Notes: generated by a model from the letters alone, not told the origin. DNA of 64,000 nucleotides from an uncultured Rikenellaceae bacterium (GCA_964640125.1 CAZXGG010000001.1:94445-158444), one strand, 5' to 3'. Shown: positions 39,891 through 59,848, counted from the stretch's first letter. Made by a program: numbers and translations.

Positions 39891-42800
39891 TTATTTAATT
39901 ACCACGGGGAAATCATGTCCCCGTGAGAACGTATAGGGGTATTGAGCCTGTCCCTTGTATATCTTTGAAAGGGCAGGCACCTGATCATCGAGAAACGATT
40001 TCAGTTCATAGATGGTGACCTTCCCGTCTTTTGGGGCTCCGTCAGCGCTGCCGTTCAATGCTTGCAGGATAACGTAGGTAAAAAGACCATGGCCAAGACT
40101 TCCCACTTCGGTTGCAAACTGTTCGCTACCGGCAGCGGCAAGCACATGGACCCCGGAACTTCGGGACATCTGTGCCAGTGCTTTCTCCTCCATGGCTCCC
40201 CGTTGGGCCAGAAGCTCGGTCGATCCACCCGATTGACAGGCATCGAGCACAACCAGTTGCTTTAATGCCTTGATGTTTTTGAATTTTTCCTGCATATCCC
40301 CGGCATAAATGGATCCCTTGATCAGTTTATCCATCTGATACAAGCTTACACTTTCGGTCGGAATAAAAAAGAATTTATTTTCCACCATGCTTCCGTGTCC
40401 GGCATAATAGAAGAAAAAAACATCCTCGGGATTGATTTTCACGGACAGGGTATCCAGCGCACTCAAAATATTTTCCCGGGTCGCTTCTTTATCATAAAGT
40501 TCGATTAGTTCGATTCGCTTGAACAGTTTTTGAGCACGCTCTCCAACAAGTTTTGCAAATGCCCGTGCATCTGCTTTTGCATAGTTTAGTTCAAGCTGGG
40601 GATTTTCATATTTATTGATCCCGATCGCGATGACGTAACAGATGGCGGTACTTTCCAGTCCTTTGTAATGGAGGATGATCTCTTCGGGCCGGGATTCAAT
40701 CCTTCCGTCGCTGAATGCCGATAGTGAAAGAATATTTTCTCCGGGGATGAGGCTAACCGTGTAGTTCTTCATGATCGACTGGCCTTCTCTCCCAGACCTT
40801 CCCAGGCCGCTGTTGTCAACGGGAAGGCTTTTCCCGTTATGCAACAGTTTTACCTCATTAATGCCCCCTCCCGTGTTGGTAATTTTTGCAAAGATTTTAA
40901 CGTCGCTGTTTTCCATTTCAGTACCGGATTTTGGGGTGATGATGGAAACAACGGGTGGGGGTGATTCTTCCAGTTTATTCAGGAGGTTGACGGGTTCTTC
41001 GATCAGCCCGCGGTTCCGGTATACTTCCTGCAGTAATCCGGGATGGTAAAACTCTTCAAAAAACTGATCGATGTTATACGTGGTGGTTCCCCTGACAAAG
41101 AAAATTGATTTTCTGGCTCCTTCCGAAGCATCGAAAAATCCCTCTTTTGTTTTGACCAACCAGTCCGATTCACCGAGAAAAATCTGGGTCAGTAATTCAG
41201 ATCCTGTTTCCAGGTCCCAGGTTTTAATGGTTCCGTCATGACTTCCGGTAATCAGGAATTTTCCATCCGGACTGATCTGCACTGAACTTACGGTGCCATT
41301 ATGGCCGGTAAAGGTCCGGATAACCTTTCCGGTTTCCGCATTCCATAATTTTGCCGTGTTATCATCACTTCCCGTAACAATGAATTTTCCGGTTTTATCA
41401 AAGTTCACGGCATGGATACGGGCGGAATGGCCCCTGAATTTTTGTACCTGTAACCCGGTGGCTATATCCCATAGCTTAACCATCCCGTCGAAACTTCCCG
41501 ACAGCATGTACTTCCCGTCGGGACTCATCCGAATGGTTGTTACGATCTGCGTATGCCCGATGAATTCCCGGATTTCTTCTCCGGTGTCGATTTCAAACAA
41601 CCTCAGTTTTTTAGGATTTTCACGGGTTGGAAGGACAGCTGAAACGACATATAATCCGTTTCGGGTAAAGCGGACGGCATACGGTGTTAAACTGGGAATG
41701 GATTGGACCAGGTCACCCGCTTCAAGATCCCATACCCGTGTTCTTCCGTCCCAGCTGCCTGTAGCCAGGGATGTACCATCTGAACTGAAAGCAACAGTAA
41801 AAACCGGGATGTTGGATGTGCGATCGGGAAGTGTATATAACAATTCTCCGGAAGAGACATTCCAGATGCGTGCCGTACCATCCACACTGCCGGTGGCCAG
41901 ATACTTCCCGTCCGGGCTGAAATCAAGGGAGATGACCATGCCTTCGTGTCCCCGGTAAGTCTGAACCACCCTGCCGGTTGAAAAATCCATCAGTTTAGCA
42001 TTGTTCCCGGTTTTCCCGACTGCGATGTATTGCCCATCCGGACTCAACCGGACTTCATTGATAAAGGCAATCCAGTACATATAACCGTCACTCAGAACGG
42101 CTTCATCCACATCATTTAAAAATCCTCTTAGGGTAGTGAAATTCTTCCCTGATGGGATTTCCCATATCGAGGCTGTCCTGTCTTCGCTTCCCGTAAGGAG
42201 AAAATTCCCGGCAGGAGATGGTTTCAGATCCGTAACATCCCTGAGGTGGCCCTCGATGGTCGTCACCGGCTTTCCGGTTCGTGCATTGAAGATGGTTACC
42301 ACCTTATAATAGGATGAGACGATGTACTTTCCATCCGGGGAATAATAAGCCCCACCCTCCCGGTTACTCCTGCCATCCATCGGCCTGATTTTTTTACCCG
42401 ACTCAATATTCCAGGTATGGATGGAATCGTAATTTGAGATGAATTCGGTTTCATCCGGGCTAAAACTGGCAGAAATAATGCATGAGGTACAGGAGGAGCG
42501 GTCACCCTTGAATTTTTTCATTTCCTTTCCCGACTGGAAATCAAAAAGGATTACGGTTCGATCATTGCTGCCAACCAGTAACCGGGTGCCGTCACGGCTG
42601 ATCTCTAACGAACCGGCTGACGGATAGGTGAAGTTTTTCTGCATGGTGATATCCTGAGGCTCCGGGATGAATCGCCTGATCTCCTTGCCGGTGGAAAGAT
42701 CCCAAAGGATGGCATGGTTCCGTTCTGTTCCTGTAATCAGGTTAGCTCCCGAGGTAAACGCAGCACAAAAAATATCATCATCGGGAAGTACGATTGTCCG

Positions 42801-43157
42801 GATCAGCCGGCTGGTTTCTGTCTCCCAAAGTTTAAGTGAATAATCCTGGTCCACGGAAGCAATGAGTTTTCCATCCAGGCTAAAGGATAACTGCCTGGAT
42901 TCCCCAACACTACCGAGGTATGAACGGATCTCCCGTCCGCTGGCAGCATGCCATAGCTTGATGGTCTTATCATTACTGCCTGTGGCAGCAAATTCCCCAT
43001 CCGGACTGTATGCAACAGCGGTTACTGCTGCATAGTGCCCGGTCTGTATAACGGTTTCTATAGTCTGTTCCTGTGCAGTGAGTCTTGCAGACTGCAGGAC
43101 AAAACATGCAGTGACACAAAGGAATGTAAGGGTAGATGAGGTTCTTTTCAAATCCAT
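39891..43157 (-). CDS. Exported WD40-repeat (about 14 blades) protein with C-terminal caspase/peptidase C14 domain
   Basis: Signal peptide MDLKRTSSTLTFLCVTACFVLQSARLTA. There are 14 units of the type SPDGK..ATGS.D.T.K.W. The last 252 aa (nt 39894-40649) carry the catalytic His in YYAGHG (codon 40395-40397) and Cys in LDACQSGG (codon 40236-40238). Confidence 0.9.
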   Translation of the reverse strand: MDLKRTSSTLTFLCVTACFVLQSARLTAQEQTIETVIQTGHYAAVTAVAYSPDGEFAATGSNDKTIKLWHAASGREIRSYLGSVGESRQLSFSLDGKLIASVDQDYSLKLWETETSRLIRTIVLPDDDIFCAAFTSGANLITGTERNHAILWDLSTGKEIRRFIPEPQDITMQKNFTYPSAGSLEISRDGTRLLVGSNDRTVILFDFQSGKEMKKFKGDRSSCTSCIISASFSPDETEFISNYDSIHTWNIESGKKIRPMDGRSNREGGAYYSPDGKYIVSSYYKVVTIFNARTGKPVTTIEGHLRDVTDLKPSPAGNFLLTGSEDRTASIWEIPSGKNFTTLRGFLNDVDEAVLSDGYMYWIAFINEVRLSPDGQYIAVGKTGNNAKLMDFSTGRVVQTYRGHEGMVISLDFSPDGKYLATGSVDGTARIWNVSSGELLYTLPDRTSNIPVFTVAFSSDGTSLATGSWDGRTRVWDLEAGDLVQSIPSLTPYAVRFTRNGLYVVSAVLPTRENPKKLRLFEIDTGEEIREFIGHTQIVTTIRMSPDGKYMLSGSFDGMVKLWDIATGLQVQKFRGHSARIHAVNFDKTGKFIVTGSDDNTAKLWNAETGKVIRTFTGHNGTVSSVQISPDGKFLITGSHDGTIKTWDLETGSELLTQIFLGESDWLVKTKEGFFDASEGARKSIFFVRGTTTYNIDQFFEEFYHPGLLQEVYRNRGLIEEPVNLLNKLEESPPPVVSIITPKSGTEMENSDVKIFAKITNTGGGINEVKLLHNGKSLPVDNSGLGRSGREGQSIMKNYTVSLIPGENILSLSAFSDGRIESRPEEIILHYKGLESTAICYVIAIGINKYENPQLELNYAKADARAFAKLVGERAQKLFKRIELIELYDKEATRENILSALDTLSVKINPEDVFFFYYAGHGSMVENKFFFIPTESVSLYQMDKLIKGSIYAGDMQEKFKNIKALKQLVVLDACQSGGSTELLAQRGAMEEKALAQMSRSSGVHVLAAAGSEQFATEVGSLGHGLFTYVILQALNGSADGAPKDGKVTIYELKSFLDDQVPALSKIYKGQAQYPYTFSRGHDFPVVIK

Positions 43158-43306: not shown

Positions 43307-44842
43307 ATGGATATAAAAGATCATTTTATCAGTGATATTCCACGGAGGAAATTTCTGGATCTAACCTTCAAGGGGAGTCTTGCCCTTGCTGCCACTCCGG
43401 CAATCCTGTCCAATCTTTGGTCCTGTAAATCCCTCTCTTCCGGACCGGCTGAAGCGCTGGACCAGGGATTGCTGAACAGAGTCATTCAAAAAGCCCTGGA
43501 AAAAGGGGGTGATTTTGCTGAAGTGTATGTTGAGAACAGGATTACCAGGAATATATCGATGGAAGAGTCGAAGTTTAAAAGCGGCACATTCGGGATCGTA
43601 AAGGGAGCCGGGGTGCGGGTCATTACCGGAGATAAAACCGGATATGCCTATACCGACGAGTTGTCGGAAGAAAAACTGATGCGGGCAGCCGAAGTTGCGT
43701 CGTATGTGGCCCGGGGAAGTCAGCAGGTTGCCCCGGTTGATATTCAGGAAGCCCATCGCGAATCGTTCATTACAGTAAAGATCCCCCTTCAGGATCTGGC
43801 CGATGAGAAACGGTTGGATGTGATGAAACGGGCCAACCAGGCGGCGCTTGACTACGATCCGAAAATAAAAATGGCAATCATCGATTACTATGATGAGGTG
43901 CGGGGAAGAACCATTGCCAATAGCGAAGGACTCTACCTGAACGATGAATTACCCCAGCTATTCTTTATCGTTCAGGCAATGGGTGTGGGTAACAATACAC
44001 GCCACATGGCCAGGGAACGGCTGGGTCATCACTGCGGTTTCGAGATGTTTGAAAAAATTACTCCGGAAGAAGTGGCACGCCGGGCAGCCAGAGAAGCCGT
44101 TGTGATGCTCGAAGCAGAAGATGCCCCGGCAGGAATGATGGATGTCGTGATGCAAAACGGCTGGGGTGGTGTGCTGGTTCATGAAGCCGTGGGTCATCCC
44201 CTCGAAGCCGATAATATTGCAAAAGAAGTGGGTGCATTTACCGGCAAACTGGGCCAGAAAGTAGCCAGTGATCTGTTTACCATGGTGGATGACGGTTCCA
44301 TACCCGATCAACGCGGTACCACAAACTTTGATGATGAAGGAACTCAGATGAAACGGAATGTGTTGATTGAAAAGGGTGTGCTGAAGAAATACATGACCGA
44401 TATCCTTTCCGGTAAACAGATTAACATGGAAAGAACCGGAAACGGACGCCGTGAGTCATTCCGGCATATCCCTATCCCAAGAATGACCAACACATTCATC
44501 GAGCAGGGAGAAAATACTCCCGAAGATATTCTCTCTTCAACCAAAGAGGGTCTTTATGTCCGGAGCCTGAGCGGTGGGAGCGTCAATCCGGTTACCGGAA
44601 TGTTCAACTTTACCTGCCGGGAAGCCTATCTCATCGAGAATGGAAAGAAAACCACACCGGTAAAAGGAGCTACACTGATCGGAAACTGCCTCGACGTAAT
44701 CTCCGGGATCGACGCGGTAGGCAATGACCTGGCATTCGGTCCCGGAATATGTGGTAAGGGACAAATGGCCGAAGTATCCGTCGGACAACCAACCGTGCGG
44801 ATCAGGGGAATTAATGTTGGTGGTAGCAGAACCAGATCGTAA
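43307..44842 (+). CDS. tldD: TldD family metalloprotease with twin-arginine (Tat) signal, possible lipoprotein
   Basis: N-terminus IPRRKFLDLTFKGSLALAATPAILSNLWSC. HExxxH motif VHEAVGHPLE at nt 44180-44197. C-terminal GxC..GQ region. Confidence 0.85.
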   Translation: MDIKDHFISDIPRRKFLDLTFKGSLALAATPAILSNLWSCKSLSSGPAEALDQGLLNRVIQKALEKGGDFAEVYVENRITRNISMEESKFKSGTFGIVKGAGVRVITGDKTGYAYTDELSEEKLMRAAEVASYVARGSQQVAPVDIQEAHRESFITVKIPLQDLADEKRLDVMKRANQAALDYDPKIKMAIIDYYDEVRGRTIANSEGLYLNDELPQLFFIVQAMGVGNNTRHMARERLGHHCGFEMFEKITPEEVARRAAREAVVMLEAEDAPAGMMDVVMQNGWGGVLVHEAVGHPLEADNIAKEVGAFTGKLGQKVASDLFTMVDDGSIPDQRGTTNFDDEGTQMKRNVLIEKGVLKKYMTDILSGKQINMERTGNGRRESFRHIPIPRMTNTFIEQGENTPEDILSSTKEGLYVRSLSGGSVNPVTGMFNFTCREAYLIENGKKTTPVKGATLIGNCLDVISGIDAVGNDLAFGPGICGKGQMAEVSVGQPTVRIRGINVGGSRTRS

Positions 44843-44862
44843 ATCTCAAAAAAATTGACATC

Positions 44863-46197
44863 ATGGATTACAAAATAACAGCAGAAAAATTAGTCAGCCA
44901 ATGCCTTCAAAAAGGCGCTGATGCTGCAGAAGTATACATTGAGTCAGGCAGGGAACTGAGCATTGAAGTACGGAACGGAGCGGTGGAAACCGTTCAGGAA
45001 GCAGCCTCACACGGGGTGGGTCTCAGGGTCTTCATTGAAGGGAAAATGGCATTTTCGCATTGCAACGATTTTTCGGATGAAGCCCTTGACCATGCAGTAT
45101 CCAGTGCAGTGAGTTTTGCTGCCAATACCACACCGGATGAAAACAACGTGTTGCCGGAAGATCAGCCCGATACAGCCGTGGAAGAACTCTATGACCCTTC
45201 CATTGCTGCCGTTGATATGGATACGAAAATTGACATGGCAAAAGAGGTGGAAGCCCTTGCAATGAAAGATGAACGAATAACCAAAAGTTCCGGGGCCGGA
45301 TTTGGTGAAGGAGATGGTGAAATCATTATCGGCAATTCCAACGGCATGCTGAAAAGCTATAAATCTTCCTTTTGCAACTATGGAGTGGGCGTTGTTGCCG
45401 AAAAAGGAGAACAAAAATCTACCGGATATGAATACTGTGGAAGACGATTCTTCGAAGACCTGGAAGAACCGCGAAAAATTGCCGAAGTGGCCGCAAGAAA
45501 AGCATACGAAATGCTCGACCCGCAAATGGTTAAAACCCAGAAGGCATCGGTGATATTCCATCCGGATGTGGCACGTTCTATTCTGGGCGGAATACTTGGT
45601 GCACTCAACGGGGAGAGAGTCCTTCAGGGAGCCAGCTTCCTGGCAGATAAGATAGACCAGAAATTTACTACCGAGCTGATGACCCTCATCGATGATGGGA
45701 CCATACCCCGGGGACCAGGCAGCAAACCATTCGATGGTGAAGGAGTGCCAACACAGAAACGAATACTGGTCGATAAGGGGGTGTTGAGAGGATTTTTATA
45801 CAACACAGCCGTGGCAAAAAGAGCCGGGATGAAAAGCACCGGAAATGCTTCACGGGGTGATTTTCGCAGCCTTCCCGGGATCGGCTTCCATAACCTATAT
45901 ATGGTAGCCGGAACAAATACCCCGGAGGAGATTATCAAAGCAACAAAAAAAGGACTGTTGCTGAAGGGCGTTACAGGATATGGAATCAATCCGGTGAATG
46001 GTCATTTCAGCGGCGGAGCTTCCGGTTTCTGGATAGAAAATGGCGAGATCGCTTTTCCGGTCAAAGGACTGACCATCGCCGGAAGCGCATTTGAGATGCT
46101 CAACGCGATCGATATGATTGGGAATGACCTCGACATGAACCGCAGCTTTACGGCCCCAACCTTCCGAATACTTGAAATGCAGATCGGAGGCACCTAA
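44863..46197 (+). CDS. pmbA: PmbA/TldE family protein (TldD partner), no signal peptide
   Basis: 444 aa, 20 nt downstream of tldD. TldD/PmbA fold motifs (GVGLRV, ...GNASRG...) are present, but no HExxxH. Confidence 0.8.
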   Translation: MDYKITAEKLVSQCLQKGADAAEVYIESGRELSIEVRNGAVETVQEAASHGVGLRVFIEGKMAFSHCNDFSDEALDHAVSSAVSFAANTTPDENNVLPEDQPDTAVEELYDPSIAAVDMDTKIDMAKEVEALAMKDERITKSSGAGFGEGDGEIIIGNSNGMLKSYKSSFCNYGVGVVAEKGEQKSTGYEYCGRRFFEDLEEPRKIAEVAARKAYEMLDPQMVKTQKASVIFHPDVARSILGGILGALNGERVLQGASFLADKIDQKFTTELMTLIDDGTIPRGPGSKPFDGEGVPTQKRILVDKGVLRGFLYNTAVAKRAGMKSTGNASRGDFRSLPGIGFHNLYMVAGTNTPEEIIKATKKGLLLKGVTGYGINPVNGHFSGGASGFWIENGEIAFPVKGLTIAGSAFEMLNAIDMIGNDLDMNRSFTAPTFRILEMQIGGT

Positions 46198-46541: not shown

Positions 46542-49500
46542 TCACCCTCTTTTGCGCATCTTTGCCTTTTCAGACCAGTCGATGATCCTGCGCAGAAGAT
46601 CGTATATCAGGAAAAAATAGAAGAGTAGACTCCACAACCAGATGACGATAATGTTGAACCAGAACGTATCCATCGTTTTGTCACCAATGATTTTCACCGG
46701 GGCATAGAAATGAGCCCTTCCGGCTTTTGATATCGGATCCATGTATACGGGCATCGCCTTCCTGACCAGTTGATGGTCCAATTCCGGCAGGAACGGAATT
46801 TCGCCACGGTTCAGAAGCAATTCATTCAGCTTGTCATTCTCGTGTTTATCTTTTAGTCTGTTTAGCGCATCTTTACTTCCCATGGAATCAACCAGGTGAT
46901 TGTATTTTTCATCCTTGAACCGGGTTGCCTTCTCTCCCGTTTCCTGGTAGTATTCTTTGACCCCTAACAGGTAGGATTTGGTAAGGTCGAATAGTTCGCT
47001 GGAGTAGGTTTCAATAGTCAGATCCGCTATCCGCTCAAAGAGCGGGAATGATTGAAAATCATGCAATTTTTGAAGCTCATTCCGGACTACCTCAAGGTTG
47101 GAAATTGCCTTTTCCCGGTTCAGATTGTTCTGGATGTTCCGGTCAGCCTCATTCAATTTGGAGATTACTTCCGGAATAAGATCACGGGAATTAAAGAGAG
47201 CATTCTTTTCTTCTTTTTCAAGGTCAAAGAAATTGCGCTGGTATTTATTTTTTTTGAACTGTTCCACGGCAATGGCTTCATACGCCCATCGTGAGGTCAT
47301 CAGTTCGCCGATTGTTGGGACAAAAACCGGATTTCGGAATACGTTGTGCAACCTGTCGAATTTAACTATCACTCCGCTAAAGAGAAGCTGGGGAACCAGG
47401 ATGAATGGAATGATGATATAGATTGCTACCACTGAATTCAGACCGGAGGAGAGGTTCAATCCGATCATATTTGCCATGCAGGAGGCGGAAAAGAGAACCA
47501 TCCAGTAGGGGAAGGTCATCCCTTTGATTTCCAGAATAGTATTCCCGATCAGGACAAAACTGAAGGTTTGGATCGCCGAGATCAGGAAGAGGATCAGGAT
47601 TTTTGAATGCAGATAGCTGAGCCGGCTCAGGTGAAGGAATGATTCCCGTTTCAGGATTTTTTGATCCCGGATGATCTCTTCGGCACTCACAGTCAATCCC
47701 ATGAACAGGGCTACCACAACTGCCATGAAGATATAGGCGGGAAGGTTTTCATTTTCCCTGAACACATAAGATAGGGTACCTGAATGATCGCTGATGTATT
47801 TGGTAAAATAGCCGATGATCAGGGCAAGTAGGGGCGCTTCCAGGAAATTGATCAGCATGTATTGCCGGTTGGAAAGTTTAGACAAGACATTGCGGGTGAT
47901 GAAGATCCAGAACTGAGACAACGGGTTGGGTATACTAAAGATGCGTGGAGGCAAGGGGTTTTTTTGATGCTTTTCCTGTTCTTCTGATTCGAAGTTTTCC
48001 AGGTAAAGCTGATACCATTCTCTGGGGGAGACCTTTCTCTTTTCCACCAGTTTCCCGTATTCATCCACCTCACGTGCTTCAACAATCTGGAGGATCTGTT
48101 CTGGCACTACATTTCCGCAGGAAAGACATTGTCCCTCTGTTGCATTTACATAATTGCTGGCCGATTTAAAATAGACCAGTGCGTCAATGGGATTCCCCTT
48201 GTAGATGGGATATCCCCCTTTATCCAGGATTAGTATCCTATCAAACAGTTTAAAAATATCGGAATAGGGCTGGTGGATGTTGATGATGACCAGTTTCCCC
48301 TTGAGTGTTTGCTCTTTCAGGAGCAGCATTACCTTTTCTGAATCCAGGGAAGAGAGTCCTGAAGTGGGTTCATCCACAAACAATATGGAGGGCTCGCGGA
48401 TTAGTTCCAGTGCGATATTTAATCGTTTTCGCTGCCCCCCACTGATGAATTTATTCAGGGGTGATCCGACCTTCAGATTCCGGCTCTCATACAGTTCAAG
48501 ATCCTTCAGTATTTTGTTGATCCGTTTCAGTACTTCCGCTTTTGATAGCTTGCTGAAACAGAGCTTGGCATTATAATAAAGATTCTGGAACACGGTAAGT
48601 TCCTCTATGAGCAGATCATCCTGGGGAACAAATCCGATCATCCCCTCCAGTTTTTCTTTCTCCGCGTATAGATCGTACCCGTTAATCAGGATTCTTCCCC
48701 GCTGTGGCTGCATGTTACCATTCAAGATGTTCAGCAGGGTTGATTTGCCCACCCCGCTTCCTCCCAGAATCCCTATCAAATTACCTGACTCTTCGGTAAA
48801 TGAAAACCGGTGTATTCCATGATCACTCCTTTTGAACTTGAATTCTATATCCAGGGCTTGAAAAACAATCTTTTCATGATCCCTTTCGCGAAAAAAACAG
48901 TTCGAAACGTCACTGTAATAAATGGGCCTGATCTTCGGACTGGTAATGAGCGACCCCTGATCAAGCAAGTGGATCCTTTCCGGTGGGATATAATGCCCGT
49001 TTAAAAGCAGGGTGCTGCTTCCCAGGTAGCGGAAAATAAAGGTGTTGGTACTGGTATGATGAAGGATGATGATCATCCCGTCAAGGTCACTTTTTTGAAT
49101 ATGGTGGATCCCCTCCACCGGGGGATCCGGTGCTTTGCTGATAACAAGCAGCTTATCTTTTTGAATATCATGTGACAGGGGATCCAGGATGTAGCTTTTT
49201 GTATTGTGAAGCTCCGTTTCGGTTATGTTGAAGCAACGGGCAACCATCTTAATAAAACCCAGTTCACGATCTGTCATTACCTCATCTTCATTGATGAATT
49301 CAACGAGTCGCATAAAAACAATGAACTTCTCTCTCTGCAGGAGATTCTTGTTTATTTCGGTACAAAAAGAATGAATGCTGTCAGTATTTAGCGGATCTAT
49401 TCCGGCAGTTAATGCTGCTCCCTCTTTCACCAGCTGAGGATGATAGGTGGCAATATACTTCTCAAACAGGGTAATGTATTTGTTAATGAGCTGGGCACTC

Positions 49501-49619
49501 AGGTGTTGTTGAAGGTAAAAATGGACAATCTCTATTGCTCTGGATGAGAGACCATCTTTACTCACATTGGCAATCATAGCAAACAGCTGCAGTAAAGCAT
49601 TAAGAATGGATTCATTCAT
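46542..49619 (-). CDS. ABC transporter ATP-binding/permease fusion (ABCG/ABC-2 type) with TerB-like and FHA-like N-terminal modules
   Basis: Walker A GGSGVGKST, signature ISGGQRKR and Walker B ILFVDEPTSGLS. An ABC-2-type TM domain follows (aa about 585-750). A helical region of about 200 aa precedes a last TM helix (FWFNIIVIWLWSLLFYFFLIY) and a basic tail. Confidence 0.85.
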   Translation of the reverse strand: MNESILNALLQLFAMIANVSKDGLSSRAIEIVHFYLQQHLSAQLINKYITLFEKYIATYHPQLVKEGAALTAGIDPLNTDSIHSFCTEINKNLLQREKFIVFMRLVEFINEDEVMTDRELGFIKMVARCFNITETELHNTKSYILDPLSHDIQKDKLLVISKAPDPPVEGIHHIQKSDLDGMIIILHHTSTNTFIFRYLGSSTLLLNGHYIPPERIHLLDQGSLITSPKIRPIYYSDVSNCFFRERDHEKIVFQALDIEFKFKRSDHGIHRFSFTEESGNLIGILGGSGVGKSTLLNILNGNMQPQRGRILINGYDLYAEKEKLEGMIGFVPQDDLLIEELTVFQNLYYNAKLCFSKLSKAEVLKRINKILKDLELYESRNLKVGSPLNKFISGGQRKRLNIALELIREPSILFVDEPTSGLSSLDSEKVMLLLKEQTLKGKLVIINIHQPYSDIFKLFDRILILDKGGYPIYKGNPIDALVYFKSASNYVNATEGQCLSCGNVVPEQILQIVEAREVDEYGKLVEKRKVSPREWYQLYLENFESEEQEKHQKNPLPPRIFSIPNPLSQFWIFITRNVLSKLSNRQYMLINFLEAPLLALIIGYFTKYISDHSGTLSYVFRENENLPAYIFMAVVVALFMGLTVSAEEIIRDQKILKRESFLHLSRLSYLHSKILILFLISAIQTFSFVLIGNTILEIKGMTFPYWMVLFSASCMANMIGLNLSSGLNSVVAIYIIIPFILVPQLLFSGVIVKFDRLHNVFRNPVFVPTIGELMTSRWAYEAIAVEQFKKNKYQRNFFDLEKEEKNALFNSRDLIPEVISKLNEADRNIQNNLNREKAISNLEVVRNELQKLHDFQSFPLFERIADLTIETYSSELFDLTKSYLLGVKEYYQETGEKATRFKDEKYNHLVDSMGSKDALNRLKDKHENDKLNELLLNRGEIPFLPELDHQLVRKAMPVYMDPISKAGRAHFYAPVKIIGDKTMDTFWFNIIVIWLWSLLFYFFLIYDLLRRIIDWSEKAKMRKRG

Positions 49620-49660
49620 ATGGACTTACGTTATCAGAAAGGGGAATACTATGATCGGAT

Positions 49661-49701
49661 AAAAAGCAAAAAAAACCCTGTCAGGCTCAGGCATGACAGG
49701 G
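49661..49701 (-). terminator. Rho-independent terminator after the lipoprotein gene
   Basis: The minus strand reads CCCTGTCA-tgcctgagcc-TGACAGGG followed by TTTTTTTT. The 8-bp stem is perfect and starts 15 nt after the stop. Confidence 0.8.
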
Positions 49702-49715
49702 TAATCTATACGTGA

Positions 49716-50546
49716 TTAAACGATTATGTTTCGGATGTTTTCCACGGTTGATACGATCTTCTCAAAGGTCTCGTCACTCATTTGATCCTCTATTGCATCA
49801 TAATGTCCTTTCAACTCGTTCAGTGCATTAATGATTTCTGTAACATCTTCATCCCCTTTAATCGGCTCCATGATTTCAATCAGCTTATTCAGTGAAGATC
49901 GCTGGTGTAATATGATATCCAGCAAGGCTGCGTTGTCTGCAGCGGTAATGGCTATTTGTGTAGTAATGTACAGACCCTCAATCCAGCTACCGGACATTAC
50001 TAAAATAGCCAGTTTGTCCTGGTTATTATCTGTCAGGTAATTGTAAGTGTCAATAAACGAGTCTGAAATGATGTTGATGAGCGAATCTCCGTTTTCCAGG
50101 TTACTTTCAATCCGTTCAGCGTACGTTTGATTGAATGCGCTTGAAATTTCAATTTCATCGGTAAGCTTTTTGGAAGCATCCAGGTACAACATGGTTTCCT
50201 GCTTCATCATATAGGTGCTTGCATAGCTTAAATCGGCTCCGTAAATACCCAGGTTAACCGCTTTTTCAACCTGTGTAAAGTAATTACCTGCATTTGATGC
50301 TGGATTAGAGATACTGAGAATATAGGGAGCACCTGCCTCATTTAACATGGTGGTGATTTGGAAAGAGGTGGGTAGTGGATAACCCGACATATTTTCAATC
50401 ACTTTCTCTTTTAGTGTATCTGTTTCAGCCGCCTCCAGTTCATTTGATCCAGATTTATCCGGCCTGGAAGTGCAGGCAATCAGACCAGTAACCAATAGGA
50501 TAACCAATCCTGCATTGAGGGTTTTAAAGAAGTTGGATCGTTTCAT
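49716..50546 (-). CDS. Hypothetical all-alpha lipoprotein
   Basis: Signal peptide with lipobox GLIAC. The remainder looks helical by composition. No family was recognised. Confidence 0.6.
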   Translation of the reverse strand: MKRSNFFKTLNAGLVILLVTGLIACTSRPDKSGSNELEAAETDTLKEKVIENMSGYPLPTSFQITTMLNEAGAPYILSISNPASNAGNYFTQVEKAVNLGIYGADLSYASTYMMKQETMLYLDASKKLTDEIEISSAFNQTYAERIESNLENGDSLINIISDSFIDTYNYLTDNNQDKLAILVMSGSWIEGLYITTQIAITAADNAALLDIILHQRSSLNKLIEIMEPIKGDEDVTEIINALNELKGHYDAIEDQMSDETFEKIVSTVENIRNIIV

Positions 50547-54061: not shown

Positions 54062-55249
54062 TTAAAAATTCCATTTCAGGCGAATAAAACCAAAACCCAG
54101 ATCTTCTGTTTGATCGGTAAACTTCCCGTTGAAATATTGAGCGATGAGGGAAATGGAGAGGTTGTCTTTGAGCGATAGATCGAGGGTTGGACCGGCAAAA
54201 ACGGCATCCATGGAAGGGAAGTAAATAACGGCGAGTGTTCCGTTAAACAGGGGTGTGAATGGATAGGATATCTGCATGCCGATCGAATAGTCGGTGAATG
54301 AAAGGGTCTTGACCGAGAGCGGCATGAAGTAAAATTCACTGAAATTGAGGATGGAGAGATCATAACCATTGTACAGAAACTCTGCCAGGAGGTAAATGGA
54401 GTTGTTAAAAGTATAATCTGCGGATATCCCCAGGATCATAAAACCGGAAGTGTCGGAAAACTCCTTTATCGGATGAAAATAGGTAACTTCTCCCCGGAAA
54501 CCGGCTCCCTTAATATCACCCGACCAACCGATACCTGCTACATAATCCTCACTGTTCAGCATACCTCCCAACAGTTGAATGTCGTAATTCCATTTGTTGA
54601 ACCGGAATAATCCGGCAGCCGTAATGTCATTGTTGTGATTCACTTTAACCGCTGCTTCTGCCAGGGACGAGACACCGGTAAAGTACTGGATACGAAGCGC
54701 ATCACTTCCGGGTTTCTCCACATAATCAAAATCGAAGAAGGAATAGGCATTGAAAATATCATTGGGGTTCCACATCATGTTCTGTCCCCAGTTTATCCGT
54801 TGCCTGCCTGCCCGAACCTGTAGATTCCCTTTTGAAAAATCGATCCACAACCGGTCAATGGTGGAATGAAAAATATAGGATTTTCCCTTAAGAAGGTTGG
54901 TTGATAGATCAAACCACCCCTGCTCATTGTTGATCAATTTTGCATAGTATGGGATGGTTTTTATCGATTCACCATAGATGAAGCGGTTTCTGACTTCGAT
55001 GTTTGTTCGGAAGGATTCGGAAATGTACCATTTCATGCTGAGCCGGTTATGGATCGTATTATCGGTGATCCAGGAACCGTCCCAGTATGGGATCATGGCA
55101 CTCTGCATATTGGACAGGTATCCGTTAAACTCGATGGCTCCGTTTCCCTCCTGGGATAAAAGAGGAAAAACAGACAGCAGGAAAAGAGAAACCGATAGTC
55201 TAAACCGTTGATATACCATGCGTTTTTTACTGGGTAACGTCCGAGACAA
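54062..55249 (-). CDS. Outer-membrane beta-barrel protein (alginate-export/porin-like), last gene of the ABC operon
   Basis: Signal peptide, RAGRQRINWGQ motif, alternating-residue strands and an aromatic C-terminus ...FIRLKWNF. Alternative start ATG 55219 lies 7 nt after the ATPase stop. Confidence 0.6.
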   Translation of the reverse strand: MSRTLPSKKRMVYQRFRLSVSLFLLSVFPLLSQEGNGAIEFNGYLSNMQSAMIPYWDGSWITDNTIHNRLSMKWYISESFRTNIEVRNRFIYGESIKTIPYYAKLINNEQGWFDLSTNLLKGKSYIFHSTIDRLWIDFSKGNLQVRAGRQRINWGQNMMWNPNDIFNAYSFFDFDYVEKPGSDALRIQYFTGVSSLAEAAVKVNHNNDITAAGLFRFNKWNYDIQLLGGMLNSEDYVAGIGWSGDIKGAGFRGEVTYFHPIKEFSDTSGFMILGISADYTFNNSIYLLAEFLYNGYDLSILNFSEFYFMPLSVKTLSFTDYSIGMQISYPFTPLFNGTLAVIYFPSMDAVFAGPTLDLSLKDNLSISLIAQYFNGKFTDQTEDLGFGFIRLKWNF

Positions 55250-55910
55250 TTTTGCCGTCTTCCATCGTAATCACACGGTGGGCTTTTTTAACAACCCGGG
55301 CATCATGAGTGGAAAAAATGAAGGTAATATTCTCCTCCCTGTTCAATTTTTCCATGATGTCCAGCAGGTTTTCGGTAGATTTGGAATCCAGATTGGCGGT
55401 CGGTTCGTCAGCGAGGATAAATTTGGGCTTAGAAGCCAATGCTCGTGCTACAGCCACGCGCTGTTGCTGACCACCGGACAGCTTGTTGGGACGGCTGTTT
55501 ATTCGATCAGCCAACCCGACTGCCTGCAATAGTTCTTTTGTTCGGGCATCCCGTTCGCGTTTTGACCTTCCCTGAAGGTGCATGATGAATTCCACATTCT
55601 CTTTGGCAGTAAGTACCGGGATCAGATTGTAGGATTGAAATACAAAGCCGATGTGGTTCATCCTGAAATTGATCAGTTTCCTGGAACGGAGCTTCCAAAT
55701 ATCCACTCCGTCAACGATCACCTCCCCGGAGGTAGGACTATCAAGGCCTCCCAGGAGATTGAGAAACGTTGTTTTGCCTGATCCTGAGGGTCCTACTATG
55801 GCGGCAAATTCTCCCTTTTCAAAATTCAGGTAAATGCCGTTAACGGCTTTCACTTCAAGCCCGGCTCCATCGTAAATCTTGGTCAGGTTCTTAATCTCAA
55901 TAATACTCAT
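55227..55910 (-). CDS. ABC transporter ATP-binding protein (LolD/MacB-type)
   Basis: Walker A GPSGSGKTT, signature LSGGQQQRVAVARAL and Walker B FILADEPT. Confidence 0.9.
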   Translation of the reverse strand: MSIIEIKNLTKIYDGAGLEVKAVNGIYLNFEKGEFAAIVGPSGSGKTTFLNLLGGLDSPTSGEVIVDGVDIWKLRSRKLINFRMNHIGFVFQSYNLIPVLTAKENVEFIMHLQGRSKRERDARTKELLQAVGLADRINSRPNKLSGGQQQRVAVARALASKPKFILADEPTANLDSKSTENLLDIMEKLNREENITFIFSTHDARVVKKAHRVITMEDGKIVSDVTQ

Positions 55911-55937
55911 GTCGATCTATTTAAAAAAGTTACCGAT

Positions 55938-57155
55938 TTATTCGATCCGTAATGCTTCTGCCGGATCATATTTTAATGCCTTGTATGCCGGATAGATGGC
56001 TGCAATAATACCGGTGAACAGCACCATGATGATCACCGTGATCATGAGATTAACATCCATACTGGTAAAGACCCGGGGATCATACCCAAGCTGGGAATAA
56101 CCCTCGGCCCAGAGCGACATATCAATGGCATGTGTTTCAAAATATTTTGATAAGCCACTTCCTGCCAGCGTCCCCACAACCCCGCCAACCAGCGTAAGCA
56201 ATACCGTTTCAAGAACAATCATGTTGAATACCCGCTGTTTGTTCATACCGATTGCCATTAACATACCCAGTTCTTTCACCCGCTCCAGGACAACCATCAA
56301 CATCGTATTGATGATCCCGAATAGCAGGGCAAACAGAATGATGATGATGAAGATGTACATGTAAAGATCCATTACTTCCGTTAAATACCCCATTTCCGGA
56401 CTCAGCTCTTTCCAGTTCAGGATCTCCAAATCCCCATTCATGGCAACAATCTGATGCTGAACCGTATCGACCAGTTCGTTGTTTTCTACCAGTATGGCAA
56501 TTTCATGCCCTGCATGGTCAGGTAATTCAGCAAGACGGGCAATATCACCACGCCTGACAAAAACGGTTGTTTCATCATAGGTTGAATTCGGTGTTTTATA
56601 AATACCAACAACCCGGAATGCTCCGCCGGCAATGTTGTTGTCCAGATCCTGAAGCGTGATGACTACCTTGGAACGAAGCTTAACTTTCAGTTTTTCGGCC
56701 AGTTTATTTCCAATCAGTACAGGATTGCTCCGGATGCCGTTAAAGTATTCACCTTCAATGATGTTCTCCTCCATATCGGTTACCCCTTTTTCATCTTCGG
56801 GATCCACACCAACAATCTTAACACCGGATGCGGTTTCAGCAGAGGATATCATGGATTGGATGACAATCCGGTTGCTGACACCTTTAACACCCGGGATATC
56901 CGCTATTTTCCGGGTCAGCTCAGCGCCCGTTGAGATGTAATTTCCCAGTTCCATAGTGGACCTGAAATCGGGATGGTGAATCTGAATGTGCGACAGTTCA
57001 TTGGAAATCACCTGTTCGATCCGCTGATTCATCATACCGGTAAAAAATGCAGTGGAGAACACACCGGCAGAAATGCCAAGGGTAATGGCTATAATTACCA
57101 CGGTGCTTCTAACCTTATTGCGCCAGATGTTTCTCCAGGATATCGACCATATCAT
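55938..57155 (-). CDS. ABC transporter permease, FtsX/MacB type (4 TM, large periplasmic domain)
   Basis: N-terminus WRNIWRNKVRS, then TM1. A periplasmic domain of about 220 aa follows, then three C-terminal TMs (FtsX domain). Confidence 0.85.
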   Translation of the reverse strand: MIWSISWRNIWRNKVRSTVVIIAITLGISAGVFSTAFFTGMMNQRIEQVISNELSHIQIHHPDFRSTMELGNYISTGAELTRKIADIPGVKGVSNRIVIQSMISSAETASGVKIVGVDPEDEKGVTDMEENIIEGEYFNGIRSNPVLIGNKLAEKLKVKLRSKVVITLQDLDNNIAGGAFRVVGIYKTPNSTYDETTVFVRRGDIARLAELPDHAGHEIAILVENNELVDTVQHQIVAMNGDLEILNWKELSPEMGYLTEVMDLYMYIFIIIILFALLFGIINTMLMVVLERVKELGMLMAIGMNKQRVFNMIVLETVLLTLVGGVVGTLAGSGLSKYFETHAIDMSLWAEGYSQLGYDPRVFTSMDVNLMITVIIMVLFTGIIAAIYPAYKALKYDPAEALRIE

Positions 57156-57194
57156 AATTACACGTTTTAACTGTTTGTTAATTGATCCATTCTG

Positions 57195-58415
57195 TTATGC
57201 CCTGAGTGCCTGATTAACCCGTAAGATACCGGCCCGGTATACCGGGAATATGGCAATCACGGCAGTTATGATGAATATGGCAATGACCTGGTTGTAAAAG
57301 ACCGAAGGCAACCATGAGAATAACAGAAGGGGCTCGATTCCCATCTGGATCATGGTTGCAGCAGCCTCTCCGGTTAATCGTATCGGATGATGAATGAACC
57401 AGGTGATAATCGGAACACTTCCTGCAAAACCAGCCAGCGTGCCAATTAAACCAATCAAAATGGTTTCGAAAAAGAGGATTACCCCAAGCTTCGTACGCTG
57501 CATACCGATGGCAACCATTACCCCCATTTCCCTTCTCCTCTCTGAAAGCATCATCAGGATGGTCCCGAAAATACCAAATCCAACCAGAATATAAAGGATG
57601 GCCTTCATAACAACTCCCCCGGCCCTGTCTGCCTCAATGAGCTGAACCACCTCGGGGTGCATCTCATTCCAGGTCATCAGACGATACGGAGAACCGATCT
57701 TTTCCTGTAGCCTTTCACGCACCCCGGGCATTGCATAATGATCCGTAACCATGATCACGAGAGCTGTAAGAAGCGATTCGGCTGAATAGAATTCCCTGCA
57801 ATTGTCTATGTCCATATAGATGAGCTCCTGGTTGATCTCGGGATTGGGGAATTCCAGAATGCCACGAATGGGGTATTTGCCTGCTGCACTCACCCCATGA
57901 TAGCCCTGACCCAGTAACACAAGGGTGTCTGATACACCAAGACCCAAACGGTTGATCAACCCGGACACTACCAGCAATCCGTCATCCCCGGGTTCCAGAT
58001 AATGCCCTGAGGTAATCCATTTGCTGACTTCGGTGATACGGTCTTCTCCTTCAGGATCAACACCCATAATCATGGCTCCCTTTGTGGTCTCTTCGGATGA
58101 GGCAAGTGCAAACGATACAAACCGGGGTGCGATTTGTGTAACCCCCTCAGTTTGTTTAACAATATTGATCAGTGAGTCCGTTTCCGGGAATGAATTGTTG
58201 ATGGTCTTATCTTCCCAATAATCTTCCTGGTGGATCTGCATGTAACCGGAATAAAACTTCACCCAGTTATCCACCATGGATGTGTATGACCCTTCCTGCA
58301 TGGAAGACATCACGGTGGAAATAATGACCGCAAAAAATACGGAGGAGACAGTGATTAAGGTTCTTCGCTTGTTCCTCCATAAGTTTTTCCATGCAATCTT
58401 CAAGTTTTTCATCAC
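57195..58415 (-). CDS. ABC transporter permease, FtsX/MacB type (paralog of the downstream permease)
   Basis: N-terminus WKNLWRNKRRT. Same 1+3 TM architecture with a large periplasmic domain. Confidence 0.85.
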   Translation of the reverse strand: MMKNLKIAWKNLWRNKRRTLITVSSVFFAVIISTVMSSMQEGSYTSMVDNWVKFYSGYMQIHQEDYWEDKTINNSFPETDSLINIVKQTEGVTQIAPRFVSFALASSEETTKGAMIMGVDPEGEDRITEVSKWITSGHYLEPGDDGLLVVSGLINRLGLGVSDTLVLLGQGYHGVSAAGKYPIRGILEFPNPEINQELIYMDIDNCREFYSAESLLTALVIMVTDHYAMPGVRERLQEKIGSPYRLMTWNEMHPEVVQLIEADRAGGVVMKAILYILVGFGIFGTILMMLSERRREMGVMVAIGMQRTKLGVILFFETILIGLIGTLAGFAGSVPIITWFIHHPIRLTGEAAATMIQMGIEPLLLFSWLPSVFYNQVIAIFIITAVIAIFPVYRAGILRVNQALRA

Positions 58416-58494
58416 AACTTTGAATGGTTTAAGTTTACATTAAGCTACTAGGGTATATACCAACTTTAATCTGTCTATACCAAATTTACAAAAG

Positions 58495-59265
58495 CTACCG
58501 GACCCGCCGCATGTTCTGAATGGAGAAAAAATCATCCTCCATGGGGACGTTGAATGTCACATGGGTGAACTCCATCGTTGTTTTTTGCCCCTCCTTGTCA
58601 ACCGGAATGATCTCAAAATAGGTGGGGATAACACGATCTCCTACGTTTTTTATTTTTGATAGGATTTCACGATTTACCAGATACCCGTCTTCATCGTAAT
58701 ATTCATTCTTCAGGGTGAAATACTCATCCCTGGAGATCCAGGATATAATCTTCCCCCATACAACCGGAGCATCCTCGTGTGGTTCCAATTGAATCTTATA
58801 ACAGTCGTACTCTTCAATCGTTTCAGTTCCAATAAGGGTGTGGCTGTAATCTTCTACGATTGATGATTCCTTCACCAGATCATCGTTGGTCATATCCGAT
58901 CCCATCCACGACTGCATCATCATCGATGGGGGGATCTTGATCATGCGTTCGATAGAAGGAACCCAATTCCACATCTCCTTCTCACGCTTCAAAAAGACCT
59001 GACCACTCTCTTTCGCGGGTTCTGTGATATAAATCAGGGATAAGTCAGTTCCTTTTGACCATGCTTTGAAGGAAAGGGTTCGATCCCATTTGGGGCGTAT
59101 GATCTTCATGGTCATTTCCGCATAACTGGAATTTCCACGCATCAGCTGATTCGCTCTGTCGATAATCTCCTTTGCTGTGGGATTATCCTGAGCCTGCAAC
59201 AGTCCCTTGCCGGGAAGTACTGTTCCAATTAGAAATACCAGTAAAAAAAAGTTGATCTTTTTCAT
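58495..59265 (-). CDS. Periplasmic LolA-like outer-membrane lipoprotein-sorting family protein (TP0789-like)
   Basis: Signal peptide MKKINFFLLVFLIGTVLPG. A body of about 230 aa is rich in beta strands. Sits immediately upstream of the FtsX/ABC genes. ATG 59265 abuts the tetR stop; the ORF track start at 59289 overlaps tetR. Confidence 0.6.
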   Translation of the reverse strand: MKKINFFLLVFLIGTVLPGKGLLQAQDNPTAKEIIDRANQLMRGNSSYAEMTMKIIRPKWDRTLSFKAWSKGTDLSLIYITEPAKESGQVFLKREKEMWNWVPSIERMIKIPPSMMMQSWMGSDMTNDDLVKESSIVEDYSHTLIGTETIEEYDCYKIQLEPHEDAPVVWGKIISWISRDEYFTLKNEYYDEDGYLVNREILSKIKNVGDRVIPTYFEIIPVDKEGQKTTMEFTHVTFNVPMEDDFFSIQNMRRVR

Positions 59266-59266
59266 C

Positions 59267-59848
59267 TTATTCATCTGCATAGAGTTCAATTATTTTTTGT
59301 TTAACCGATTCAAGTGGAAAACGTTCAGGGTTCATAACATAATGAATCCCGATACCATCCAGAAGTGCAACGAATAACCTTGCCGAAGCTTTTGGATTTT
59401 CATCTCCCAGCTGTTCAAAATAGCGTTCAACCATGCCGAAAAGTGATTCGATCGTCTCCTGAAACACCTTATCGACCAGTTTCAATACAGGCGGTTGTGT
59501 CAAAATGCCAAAATATAGCTTCCAGAATTCCACGTTTTCTTTCAGAATCCGGAAGGTCTCTTCAATGAAATACTTAATCTCCTGCCTGGTAAGCATACCA
59601 TCATGATCCGGATCAAAATAGGTCATGATCTCTTCAAGGCCCTTGGCAATGATGACGCGAATTAACTCTTCCTTGCTCTCAAAGTAATTGTACAAAAGCC
59701 CCTTGGAGATACCTGCTTTGTTCGCAATGTCCTTAATCGAAGTACTGTGAAAACCCTCATTAGCAAAAAGCTCAAGGGCCGTATCCATGATCAGCAGCTT
59801 TTTCCCTTCACGGATCGCTTCAAATTGTTCGGATGTGCGCGGCGACAT
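59267..59848 (-). CDS. TetR/AcrR family transcriptional regulator
   Basis: N-terminal HTH ALELFANEGFHSTSIKDIANKAGISKGLLYNYF. 193 aa. Confidence 0.9.
   Translation of the reverse strand: MSPRTSEQFEAIREGKKLLIMDTALELFANEGFHSTSIKDIANKAGISKGLLYNYFESKEELIRVIIAKGLEEIMTYFDPDHDGMLTRQEIKYFIEETFRILKENVEFWKLYFGILTQPPVLKLVDKVFQETIESLFGMVERYFEQLGDENPKASARLFVALLDGIGIHYVMNPERFPLESVKQKIIELYADE

Follow-up and report, generated by a model that had tools for sequence, protein, structure and literature searches.

Rv1747 of Mycobacterium tuberculosis is an ATP-binding cassette (ABC) exporter that is regulated by N-terminal FHA domains and by a neighbouring kinase (PMC3138270, PMC8339232). A second regulatory system of relevance here, the Sia switch of Pseudomonas, works via the threonine phosphorylation of SiaC (PMC7647112, PMC8457831). 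In this work, we analysed a locus of an uncultured Rikenellaceae bacterium (GCA_964640125.1 CAZXGG010000001.1:94445-158444; this stretch of 64,000 nt is referred to as the window, and the region studied spans positions 46542-50546) that carries a gene for a giant ABC transporter with a TerB-like and FHA-like N-terminus and, upstream of it, a gene for a helical lipoprotein. Based on a comparison of 80 loci, taken from contigs of one genome per species of which all the named ones belong to several orders of Bacteroidota, the lipoprotein and ABC genes form a widespread and conserved gene pair in this phylum. We lean towards reading the pair as a Bacteroidota-wide envelope export module, which would be built on a homodimeric ABCG-type half-transporter with a periplasmic insert, a lipoprotein partner and a TerB/FHA-like gate.

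The eukaryotic ABCG half-transporters (ABCG2, ABCG5/G8 and ABCG1) share with the ABC protein of the window the order of a nucleotide-binding domain (NBD) followed by a transmembrane domain (TMD), an alignment that extends from the NBD through transmembrane helix 5 (TM5) and the re-entry helix, and an extracytoplasmic element between the re-entry helix and TM6. In ABCG proteins, this element is extracellular loop 3 (ECL3), a loop of roughly 40-60 aa that is disulfide-bonded in ABCG2, whereas in the window family it is a helical domain of ~200 aa. The family further differs from the eukaryotic proteins in its extra 250-aa TerB/FHA-like N-terminus, in being bacterial and having a lipoprotein partner, and in the presence of a CxxC motif upstream of the NPADF position.

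Rv1747 resembles the window family in that cytoplasmic FHA-type module(s) precede the NBD and an ABC-2-type TMD in one polypeptide, and in that signalling genes are located next door, namely PknF in M. tuberculosis and SiaB/SiaC/PP2C genes in 17 of the 80 loci analysed here. Nevertheless, Rv1747 has two canonical phosphothreonine-binding FHA domains and a phospho-acceptor linker, while the window family has one divergent FHA-like fold after a TerB-like domain; moreover, the neighbouring kinase is of the Hanks type in the former and a SiaB anti-sigma-type kinase in the latter. To our knowledge, neither a large periplasmic insert nor a lipoprotein partner has been reported for Rv1747. The first-pass annotation of this DNA, which was made from the sequence, had proposed Rv1747 as an established analogue, and by domain layout it may be regarded as a fair functional one, in the sense of a likeness of architecture and not of homology.

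The TerB-like domain, the degenerate FHA-like fold, the 200-aa ECL3 and the dedicated lipoprotein set the family apart from both ABCG and Rv1747. Our literature searches on TerB/FHA/ABC proteins, bacterial ABCG proteins with a lipoprotein, TerB in Bacteroidetes, and prokaryotic ABCG/FHA proteins retrieved no description of the family, and the databases label the ABC proteins only as 'ATP-binding cassette domain-containing protein' and the lipoproteins only as 'hypothetical protein'. As a regulated ABCG/ABC-2 exporter, the protein has a familiar engine; the family is widespread and uncharacterised.

The lipoprotein-ABC gene pair

The two same-strand open reading frames (ORFs) have exactly the coordinates of the first-pass annotation (Table 1). 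The alignment of 79 diverse orthologs that we used to count residue conservation also secures the start codon of the ABC ORF, with M1 and E3 being conserved in at least 95% of the sequences. Counting neighbours within 6 kb of the ABC gene, a lipoprotein homolog was found in 51 of the 80 loci: directly upstream on the same strand in 46, directly downstream on the same strand in four and elsewhere in one. Since approximately 8 of the 29 lipoprotein-less loci have insufficient flanking sequence to judge, the linkage rate is near 70%. The linkage is spread over most of the ABC subclades, with one of them, cluster 11, being devoid of the lipoprotein gene, and the full-length ABC architecture is kept across Bacteroidales, Flavobacteriales, Cytophagales, Sphingobacteriales and Chitinophagales. 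Cultured carriers include Marinifilum breve (L064), Labilibaculum euxinus (L037), Ancylomarina longa (L055) and Breznakibacter xylanolyticus (L021). The gene surroundings are otherwise not conserved among the loci. In a reciprocal look-up from the lipoprotein side, two of three long contigs (L085 and L086) had a gene for a 1020-1025-aa ABC protein located 12 nt downstream. The lipoprotein gene had been suggested earlier as that of a possible partner, and its adjacency to the transporter gene in 50 of the 80 loci and in most subclades, together with the reciprocal look-up, supports this suggestion. We also considered whether the lipoprotein-less loci represent a separate paralog family; this was true of cluster 11 only, and presence and absence are mixed elsewhere.

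The intergenic region of the pair contains an intrinsic terminator (Table 1), which the first-pass annotation had placed at 49661-49701. Our pattern scanner missed it, probably because the inner pairs make the loop look longer than 8 nt, and the hairpin was verified instead by folding, with a free energy of -23.8 kcal/mol, a z-score of -3.6 and none of 200 shuffled sequences being as stable. In the directly adjacent pairs of other genomes, a T-run is present in 20 of 21 gaps and, by inspection, a G+C-rich hairpin stands immediately before it in ~19 of 21. These terminator-like hairpins share no sequence similarity (e.g., L058, L035, L008, L056, L006, L027, L080, L043 and L020), and the terminator is, therefore, a feature of the gene pair that is conserved in kind. 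The strong terminator proposed from the sequence was thus confirmed; the conclusion that had been drawn from it, i.e., that the lipoprotein gene is an independent transcription unit, is too strong. Because the terminator recurs in the pairs and some gaps elsewhere are only 12 nt long, it probably adjusts the relative amounts of the two products and does not uncouple them.

The lipoprotein has a signal peptide, a lipobox ending at Cys25 (...LVTGLIAC25; read from the sequence by eye), a charged linker of ~30 aa and an all-helical body. Among 38 homologs, conservation of the lipobox cysteine reaches at least 90%, and eight residues are invariant, i.e., P59, G100, D105, Y108, D154, G186, E190 and R272. 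Searches of Pfam, NCBIfam and the PDB assigned the protein to no family, even with a 38-sequence profile, which returned noise only, in agreement with its earlier description as a helical lipoprotein of no recognised family. The lipoprotein family comprises at least 1039 clusters at 90% identity, all of them named 'hypothetical'. The Foldseek matches obtained with its low-confidence structural model were generic helical bundles with E values of ~1, and they were discarded as uninformative.

In 27 of the 80 loci, the lipoprotein gene is followed by a gene for a secreted, Cys-containing protein of ~142 aa, here called S142, in the order lipoprotein-S142-ABC or ABC-lipoprotein-S142 (e.g., L016:5492-5917, L064:5528-5947 and L030:10125-10610). 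S142 always accompanies a long-form lipoprotein bearing an extra segment of ~20 aa. It has no match in Pfam, and its gene is absent from the window.

An ABCG-type half-transporter with an enlarged periplasmic loop

Judging from its motifs and closest relatives, the ABC protein is a catalytically complete, NBD-first half-transporter of the ABC-2/ABCG type, which, as a member of this family, is presumably active as a dimer. The Pfam ABC_tran profile (PF00005) matches aa 270-420 with an E value of 3.9e-30 (105.7 bits, cut-off 25), and the NBD motifs are invariant in 50 homologs, i.e., Walker A (G286-T294), the Q-loop (Q333), the signature ISGGQRKR (with S393-Q396), Walker B (D416-E417) and H449. 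The ABC2_membrane profile (PF01061) matches aa 569-783 with an E value of 5.7e-19 (68.9 bits, cut-off 26.9). Hydropathy analysis identified five hydrophobic segments between residues 587 and 755 and a sixth at 985-1010, after which the tail of the window protein contains 7 Lys/Arg in 16 residues. The complete NBD, the ABC-2-type TMD with five clear helices, and the final TM helix with its basic tail, all of which had been recognised in the first reading of the sequence, were recovered in this way. Among solved structures, the best match is ABCG2 (E value of 2.5e-40, aa 281-755 against ABCG2 75-559), followed by ABCG5 and ABCG1, down to ~1e-35. The best NCBIfam model is TIGR00955, of the eye-pigment-precursor/ABCG subfamily, with a score of 241.7 bits that is far below its membership threshold of 736.35.

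The linker between the NBD and the TMD holds a CxxC motif, C498 and C501 (nt 48117-48128), which is at least 95% conserved in the 79 orthologs and is situated just upstream of the alignment position of the ABCG2 NPADF motif. A homodimer would bear two such motifs, and a metal or redox site is conceivable.

The location of the insert was deduced from two lines of evidence. The alignment with ABCG5 (aa 273-788 against ABCG5 73-580) runs through the re-entry helix, and the ABCG5 residues at its end are those that we take to be, in structure 5DO7, the short re-entry helix preceding extracellular loop 3. In addition, the mean number of Lys plus Arg residues across the family alternates as in a six-TM topology with both termini in the cytoplasm: 5.5 over the 27 residues before TM1 (in), 1.6 over the 16 residues of the TM1-2 loop (out), 4.6 over the 18 residues of the TM2-3 loop (in) and 4.7 over the 16 residues of the C-terminal tail (in). 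Because of this alignment and this alternation, the segment between the re-entry helix and TM6 replaces ECL3 and faces the periplasm; by homology and charge, the insert is thus periplasmic at the ECL3 position. This agrees with its first interpretation as an enlarged last extracytoplasmic loop, and a cytoplasmic placement was not seen.

The insert is 199 aa long in the window protein and 187-220 aa long (median 199) in all 79 orthologs, so that the charged helical segment of about 200 aa noted before the last TM helix is a constant of the family. It would consist mostly of amphipathic helices, with a hydrophobic periodicity that is alpha-helical at ~810-947, and it ends in a Pro/Gly-rich, beta-like stretch at 954-984. 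It contains no cysteines that are conserved in the family, and no relative of it was found in Pfam or the PDB, even with a 40-sequence profile; a Pfam scan of aa 758-1025 of the window protein alone likewise returned no match for the insert. The insert is the least conserved region of the ABC protein: the identity of the 79 orthologs to the window sequence is 67% in the NBD, 61% in the TMD and 29% in the insert. The far better conservation of the TMD would be anticipated for a translocation path within the membrane and an insert that evolves together with its partners.

Table 1. Location in the window of the two genes, the protein regions that they encode and the intergenic terminator
Feature	Position (nt)	Strand	Length or residues	Basis or remark
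ABC transporter ORF	46542..49619	-	1025 aa	
Lipoprotein ORF	49716..50546	-	276 aa	Same strand as the ABC ORF
Intrinsic terminator	~49668..49702	-		9-bp G+C-rich stem, then U8, in the 96-nt intergenic gap
TerB-like helical domain, cytoplasmic (predicted)	49170..49619	-	aa 1-150	PF05099 matches at family level, AlphaFold (AF2) helices, Foldseek match 2H5N
FHA-like beta-sandwich (predicted)	48885..49157	-	aa 155-245	AF2 strands 157-235 and Foldseek FHA matches
NBD	48180..48857	-	aa 255-480	PF00005 match and all catalytic motifs; ABCG2 is the best PDB match
NBD-TMD linker	47925..48179	-	aa 481-565	Holds the conserved CxxC
ABC-2/ABCG-type membrane domain, TM1-TM5 and re-entry helix (768-786)	47265..47924	-	aa 566-785	PF01061, hydropathy, ABCG2/ABCG5 alignment
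Extracytoplasmic insert at the ECL3 position (predicted)	46668..47264	-	aa 786-984	ABCG5 alignment and Lys+Arg counts
TM6, basic cytoplasmic tail and stop codon	46542..46667	-	aa 985-1025	Hydropathy peak 985-1010

The N-terminal TerB-like and FHA-like modules

An exhaustive search with aa 1-252 retrieved at least 547 clusters at 50% identity, in which the matching region is always N-terminal in proteins of ~1000-1050 aa; the shorter matches look like fragments truncated at contig ends. Because it was found only in this position, the N-terminal module is specific to this transporter family.

Scanned alone over aa 1-165, the window protein matches the TerB profile (PF05099) marginally, with an E value of 0.11 and a score of 13.2 bits against a cut-off of 24.4. 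Across 30 diverse members of the family, 19 match the profile at E<=1, the best of them at 8.1e-13, and some exceed the cut-off, such as P0128 with 28.8 bits. Based on these profile scores, the family qualifies as TerB-like, whereas the window sequence alone does not. The match corresponds to one domain (~aa 15-144, profile positions 10-117 of 118); of the two TerB-like repeats that had been proposed for residues 1-150, the similarity to TerB is therefore retained and the duplication is not. In agreement with this, the AlphaFold model, built with 19 homologs and having a mean predicted local distance difference test (pLDDT) of 79, has helices at 3-145, and the helical half was matched by Foldseek to 2H5N (PG1108 of Porphyromonas, rank 34). 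In many family members, although not in the clade of the window, a basic K-[KR]-R-T-S-[VL]-N-S-V motif is present in a loop of the TerB-like domain that appears disordered, with low model confidence (alignment columns ~85-100, window aa ~66-80). This motif may act as a phospho-acceptor or form a basic patch.

The same model includes a nine-strand beta module at 157-235, where the block pLDDT is ~80-89 over aa 151-220 and drops to 59-68 by 221-240. In the Foldseek comparison with the PDB, ranks 1-33 were all FHA domains, as were nearly all of the top 50 (e.g., Rad53 FHA1, CEP170, MEK1, DgcB and EssC-N); most of these matches had a probability of 0.95-1.0 and TM-scores to the target of mostly 0.4-0.57, but E values of only ~1e-2. 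The N-terminal FHA of EssC (5FWH), at rank 17, superimposes on the predicted fold with a root-mean-square deviation of 2.2 A over 73 columns and is likewise a cytoplasmic N-terminal module of a membrane ATPase. EssC differs in belonging to a type VII secretion machine and has no detectable sequence relationship with the window family; its FHA domains presumably also lack the canonical phosphothreonine-binding residues. A Pfam scan of the beta module alone (aa 149-260) produced no match at E<=10, and two PDB profile searches with N-terminal alignments retrieved neither an FHA domain nor any other relevant match.

We aligned the family with Rad53 FHA1, whose sequence was verified as authentic, using hhalign. 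In the resulting register, [KR]172-H173 of the family corresponds to K87-H88 of Rad53, S190-x-N192 to S105-T106-N107, L206-N207-G208 to L110-N111-G112 (WLNG), and G222-S-x-I to G126-D-x-I (QGDEI). In the 79 orthologs, H173 is conserved in 72%, a basic residue at position 172 in 89%, S190 in 80% and N192 in 56%. The canonical phosphothreonine-binding residues were taken to be G69-R70, S85, H88 and N107 of Rad53 FHA1. In this weak register, no equivalent of the Gly-Arg pair G69-R70 was found, with Arg following G181 in only 8 of 79 sequences, and the position aligned with S85 (aa 170) is occupied by E, D, K, N or G and not by Ser. Considering the structural model, residues 155-245 are predicted to adopt an FHA-like fold, probably that of a divergent FHA domain, without the canonical phosphate clamp. 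The FHA-like module of the first-pass annotation accordingly holds as a predicted fold with a weak alignment to Rad53 and not as a sequence-profile match, and the absence of the canonical Arg and Ser, which it had also noted, extends to the orthologs. As a separate observation, aa 226 in this module (nt 48942-48944) is Thr in the window protein and in one other of 78 orthologs, versus Arg/Lys in 77 of the 79 aligned sequences (97%).

SiaB and SiaC genes near the transporter

The signalling genes found within 6 kb of the ABC gene in 17 of the 80 loci encode SiaC (PF09345, E value of 3.3e-44) and a SiaB-like DUF6272 protein (E value of 5.1e-32), and in 12 loci, which represent several families and ABC subclades, they are located within 220 bp of the ABC gene (examples of Sia loci are L064:9145-10084, L023:1929-5129 and L053:2984-5897). 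In some loci, a PAS-SpoIIE PP2C phosphatase or a hybrid response-regulator/histidine kinase is also encoded alongside them; L023 shows a co-directional arrangement in the order PP2C-SiaB-SiaC-ABC. The likeness to SiaABC(D) of Pseudomonas aeruginosa consists in the presence of SiaC (PF09345), DUF6272 kinase and PP2C/SpoIIE genes beside the transporter in related genomes (PMC7647112, PMC8457831). The Pseudomonas switch has the diguanylate cyclase SiaD as its output, whereas no SiaD was seen in the loci studied here, where the ABC transporter is the closest neighbour to be conserved. A link between SiaC and the FHA-like module is attractive because the SiaC switch uses threonine phosphorylation, and by analogy the Sia switch may be a regulatory input to this module.

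Proposed mechanism and alternative explanations

In the export module that we favour, the dimer would flip or extrude a hydrophobic or amphipathic envelope component out of the inner membrane. The two periplasmic inserts would cover the exit as a cap or receiving chamber and would pass the cargo to the lipoprotein, tethered by its ~30-residue linker, with S142 added in one large clade; we infer this hand-off role purely from synteny and localisation signals. The intergenic terminator would keep the lipoprotein in excess over the transporter, and the TerB/FHA-like module would gate ATP turnover on a signal from the cytoplasm. Given that it lacks the phosphate-binding Arg/Ser pair, the module is probably not a canonical phosphothreonine reader, and it probably reads a protein partner or a small ligand. 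Where SiaB/SiaC/PP2C genes flank the transporter, the Sia switch would be the likeliest input. A bolder proposal, to which we assign a low probability, would make the transporter the output of SiaB/SiaC partner switches: SiaC or phospho-SiaC would dock on the degenerate FHA-like/TerB module and thereby activate a three-part trans-periplasmic route, formed by the ABCG-like dimer and its helical cap in the periplasm together with the lipoprotein and S142, that moves an envelope lipid or lipid-linked molecule to the outer membrane. If true, this Sia-driven route would be a previously unrecognised pathway of envelope biogenesis in Bacteroidota.

Several results speak against an export module of this design. 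In the loci compared, no conserved biosynthetic genes were found near the transporter. The AlphaFold model of the lipoprotein, based on a shallow alignment (>=51% identity), has a pLDDT of 54, and its fold was not modelled confidently. The FHA profile (PF00498) matched none of the 30 family members at E<=1, so that sequence-profile membership is lacking, and the hhalign comparison with Rad53 FHA1 is weak (P 0.007, probability 5.6%), yet in a sensible register. SiaC is absent from the 64-kb window, and no difference at the FHA-like positions separates the Sia-linked from the unlinked orthologs, the pocket residues being kept no better in the former. Finally, ~22 ABC loci with full flanks have no lipoprotein gene, and in the third contig of the reciprocal look-up (L084:6001-8418, from CP070687.1, a complete 2.9-Mb Bacteroidales genome), an M20 peptidase gene takes the place of the ABC gene. 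With regard to this last contig, its synteny matches that of the window (ICMT-like, M14 peptidase, kynureninase, lipoprotein ... PmbA/TldD, with TldD fragmentary), and the arrangement looks like a local gene loss or replacement.

These last two results, together with the strong terminator between the genes, would also be explained if the lipoprotein were an unrelated neighbour and two independent units merely lay side by side in this lineage. The synteny largely refutes this explanation, which we regard as very improbable: same-strand adjacency is observed in 50 of 80 loci of several orders, the lipoprotein and ABC genes stay together in order even when the pair is inverted to ABC-lipoprotein-S142, the gap is 12 nt in some genomes, and this pair is conserved while the surrounding genes are not. 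The absence of substrate-related genes nearby, for its part, fits a mechanotransmitter, in which nothing would cross the TMD and ATP hydrolysis would move the periplasmic insert, activating or releasing the lipoprotein (and S142), as in FtsEX-EnvC, MacB and LolCDE. A large periplasmic domain with a dedicated lipoprotein partner is consistent with such a device, and the helical nature of both the insert and the lipoprotein recalls the coiled-coil coupling of FtsX to EnvC. However, with its six helices the membrane domain belongs to the ABCG/ABC-2 type and not to the four-helix FtsX/MacB type, and all the characterised members of the ABC-2 fold that we know of translocate or extract (ABCG2, ABCG5/G8, ABCA1, Wzm-Wzt and TarGH). 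The TMD is also the best conserved part of the protein after the NBD, which argues for a functional path in the membrane, and we consider a mechanotransmitter unlikely.

A further alternative concerns the N-terminus, which could be a ligand or metal sensor without phospho-signalling. The TerB-like domain would bind a small molecule or metal, perhaps with the CxxC motif, the beta-sandwich would only dock it on the NBD, and the SiaB/SiaC genes would be coincidental or would act on transcription. This is compatible with TerB being the only sequence-level match at the N-terminus, with the absence of the canonical FHA Arg/Ser pair, with the conservation of CxxC (>=95%), with the fact that most loci, the window included, have no Sia genes, and with the lack of a difference at the FHA-like positions between Sia-positive and Sia-negative orthologs. 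We nevertheless find it somewhat doubtful, since the Foldseek matches are consistently FHA domains, the [KR]172-H173, S190-x-N192 and N207-G208 motifs align with those of Rad53 and are moderately conserved, and in 12 loci of several families and subclades SiaC is no more than 220 bp away from the ABC gene, a proximity that is hard to explain by chance. A role in defence received no signal either: the PADLOC models showed only generic ABC-ATPase similarity over the NBD (mad3, mad8 and AbiLi), and the lipoprotein had no match among them.

The construction of the Bacteroidota envelope differs in several respects from the proteobacterial textbook, and many of its transport steps are unassigned. 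An ABCG-type engine with a dedicated periplasmic domain and a lipoprotein would be a testable export machine, and in other systems the same combination is a mark of machines that extract lipids or lipoproteins from the inner membrane. With this family, the role of the ABCG extracellular part, which has here grown to a whole domain, can also be studied in bacteria. If a SiaBC switch feeds the TerB and FHA-like module, the known reach of both signalling modules would be extended.

Other genes in the window

Convergent with the ABC gene, a TldD/PmbA pair is located at 43307-46197 (+ strand); this neighbour is kept only among the close relatives of the window. Beyond it, positions 39891-43157 (- strand) encode a secreted protein of 1088 aa with many WD40 repeats, which were confirmed by the Pfam list of the matching contig. 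The C-terminal region of this protein contains a candidate caspase-like His/Cys dyad (…YYAGHGS… …LDACQSGG…); the confirmation extends only to the WD40 part.

On the other side of the pair, at 55227-59289 (- strand), we identified from the matching contig L081 a MacB/LolCDE-like set, which consists of a TP_0789-like (LolA-like) protein, two MacB_PCD+FtsX permeases and an ABC ATPase. The set is followed by a 395-aa ORF of no assigned family, and a TetR regulator is encoded upstream of it.

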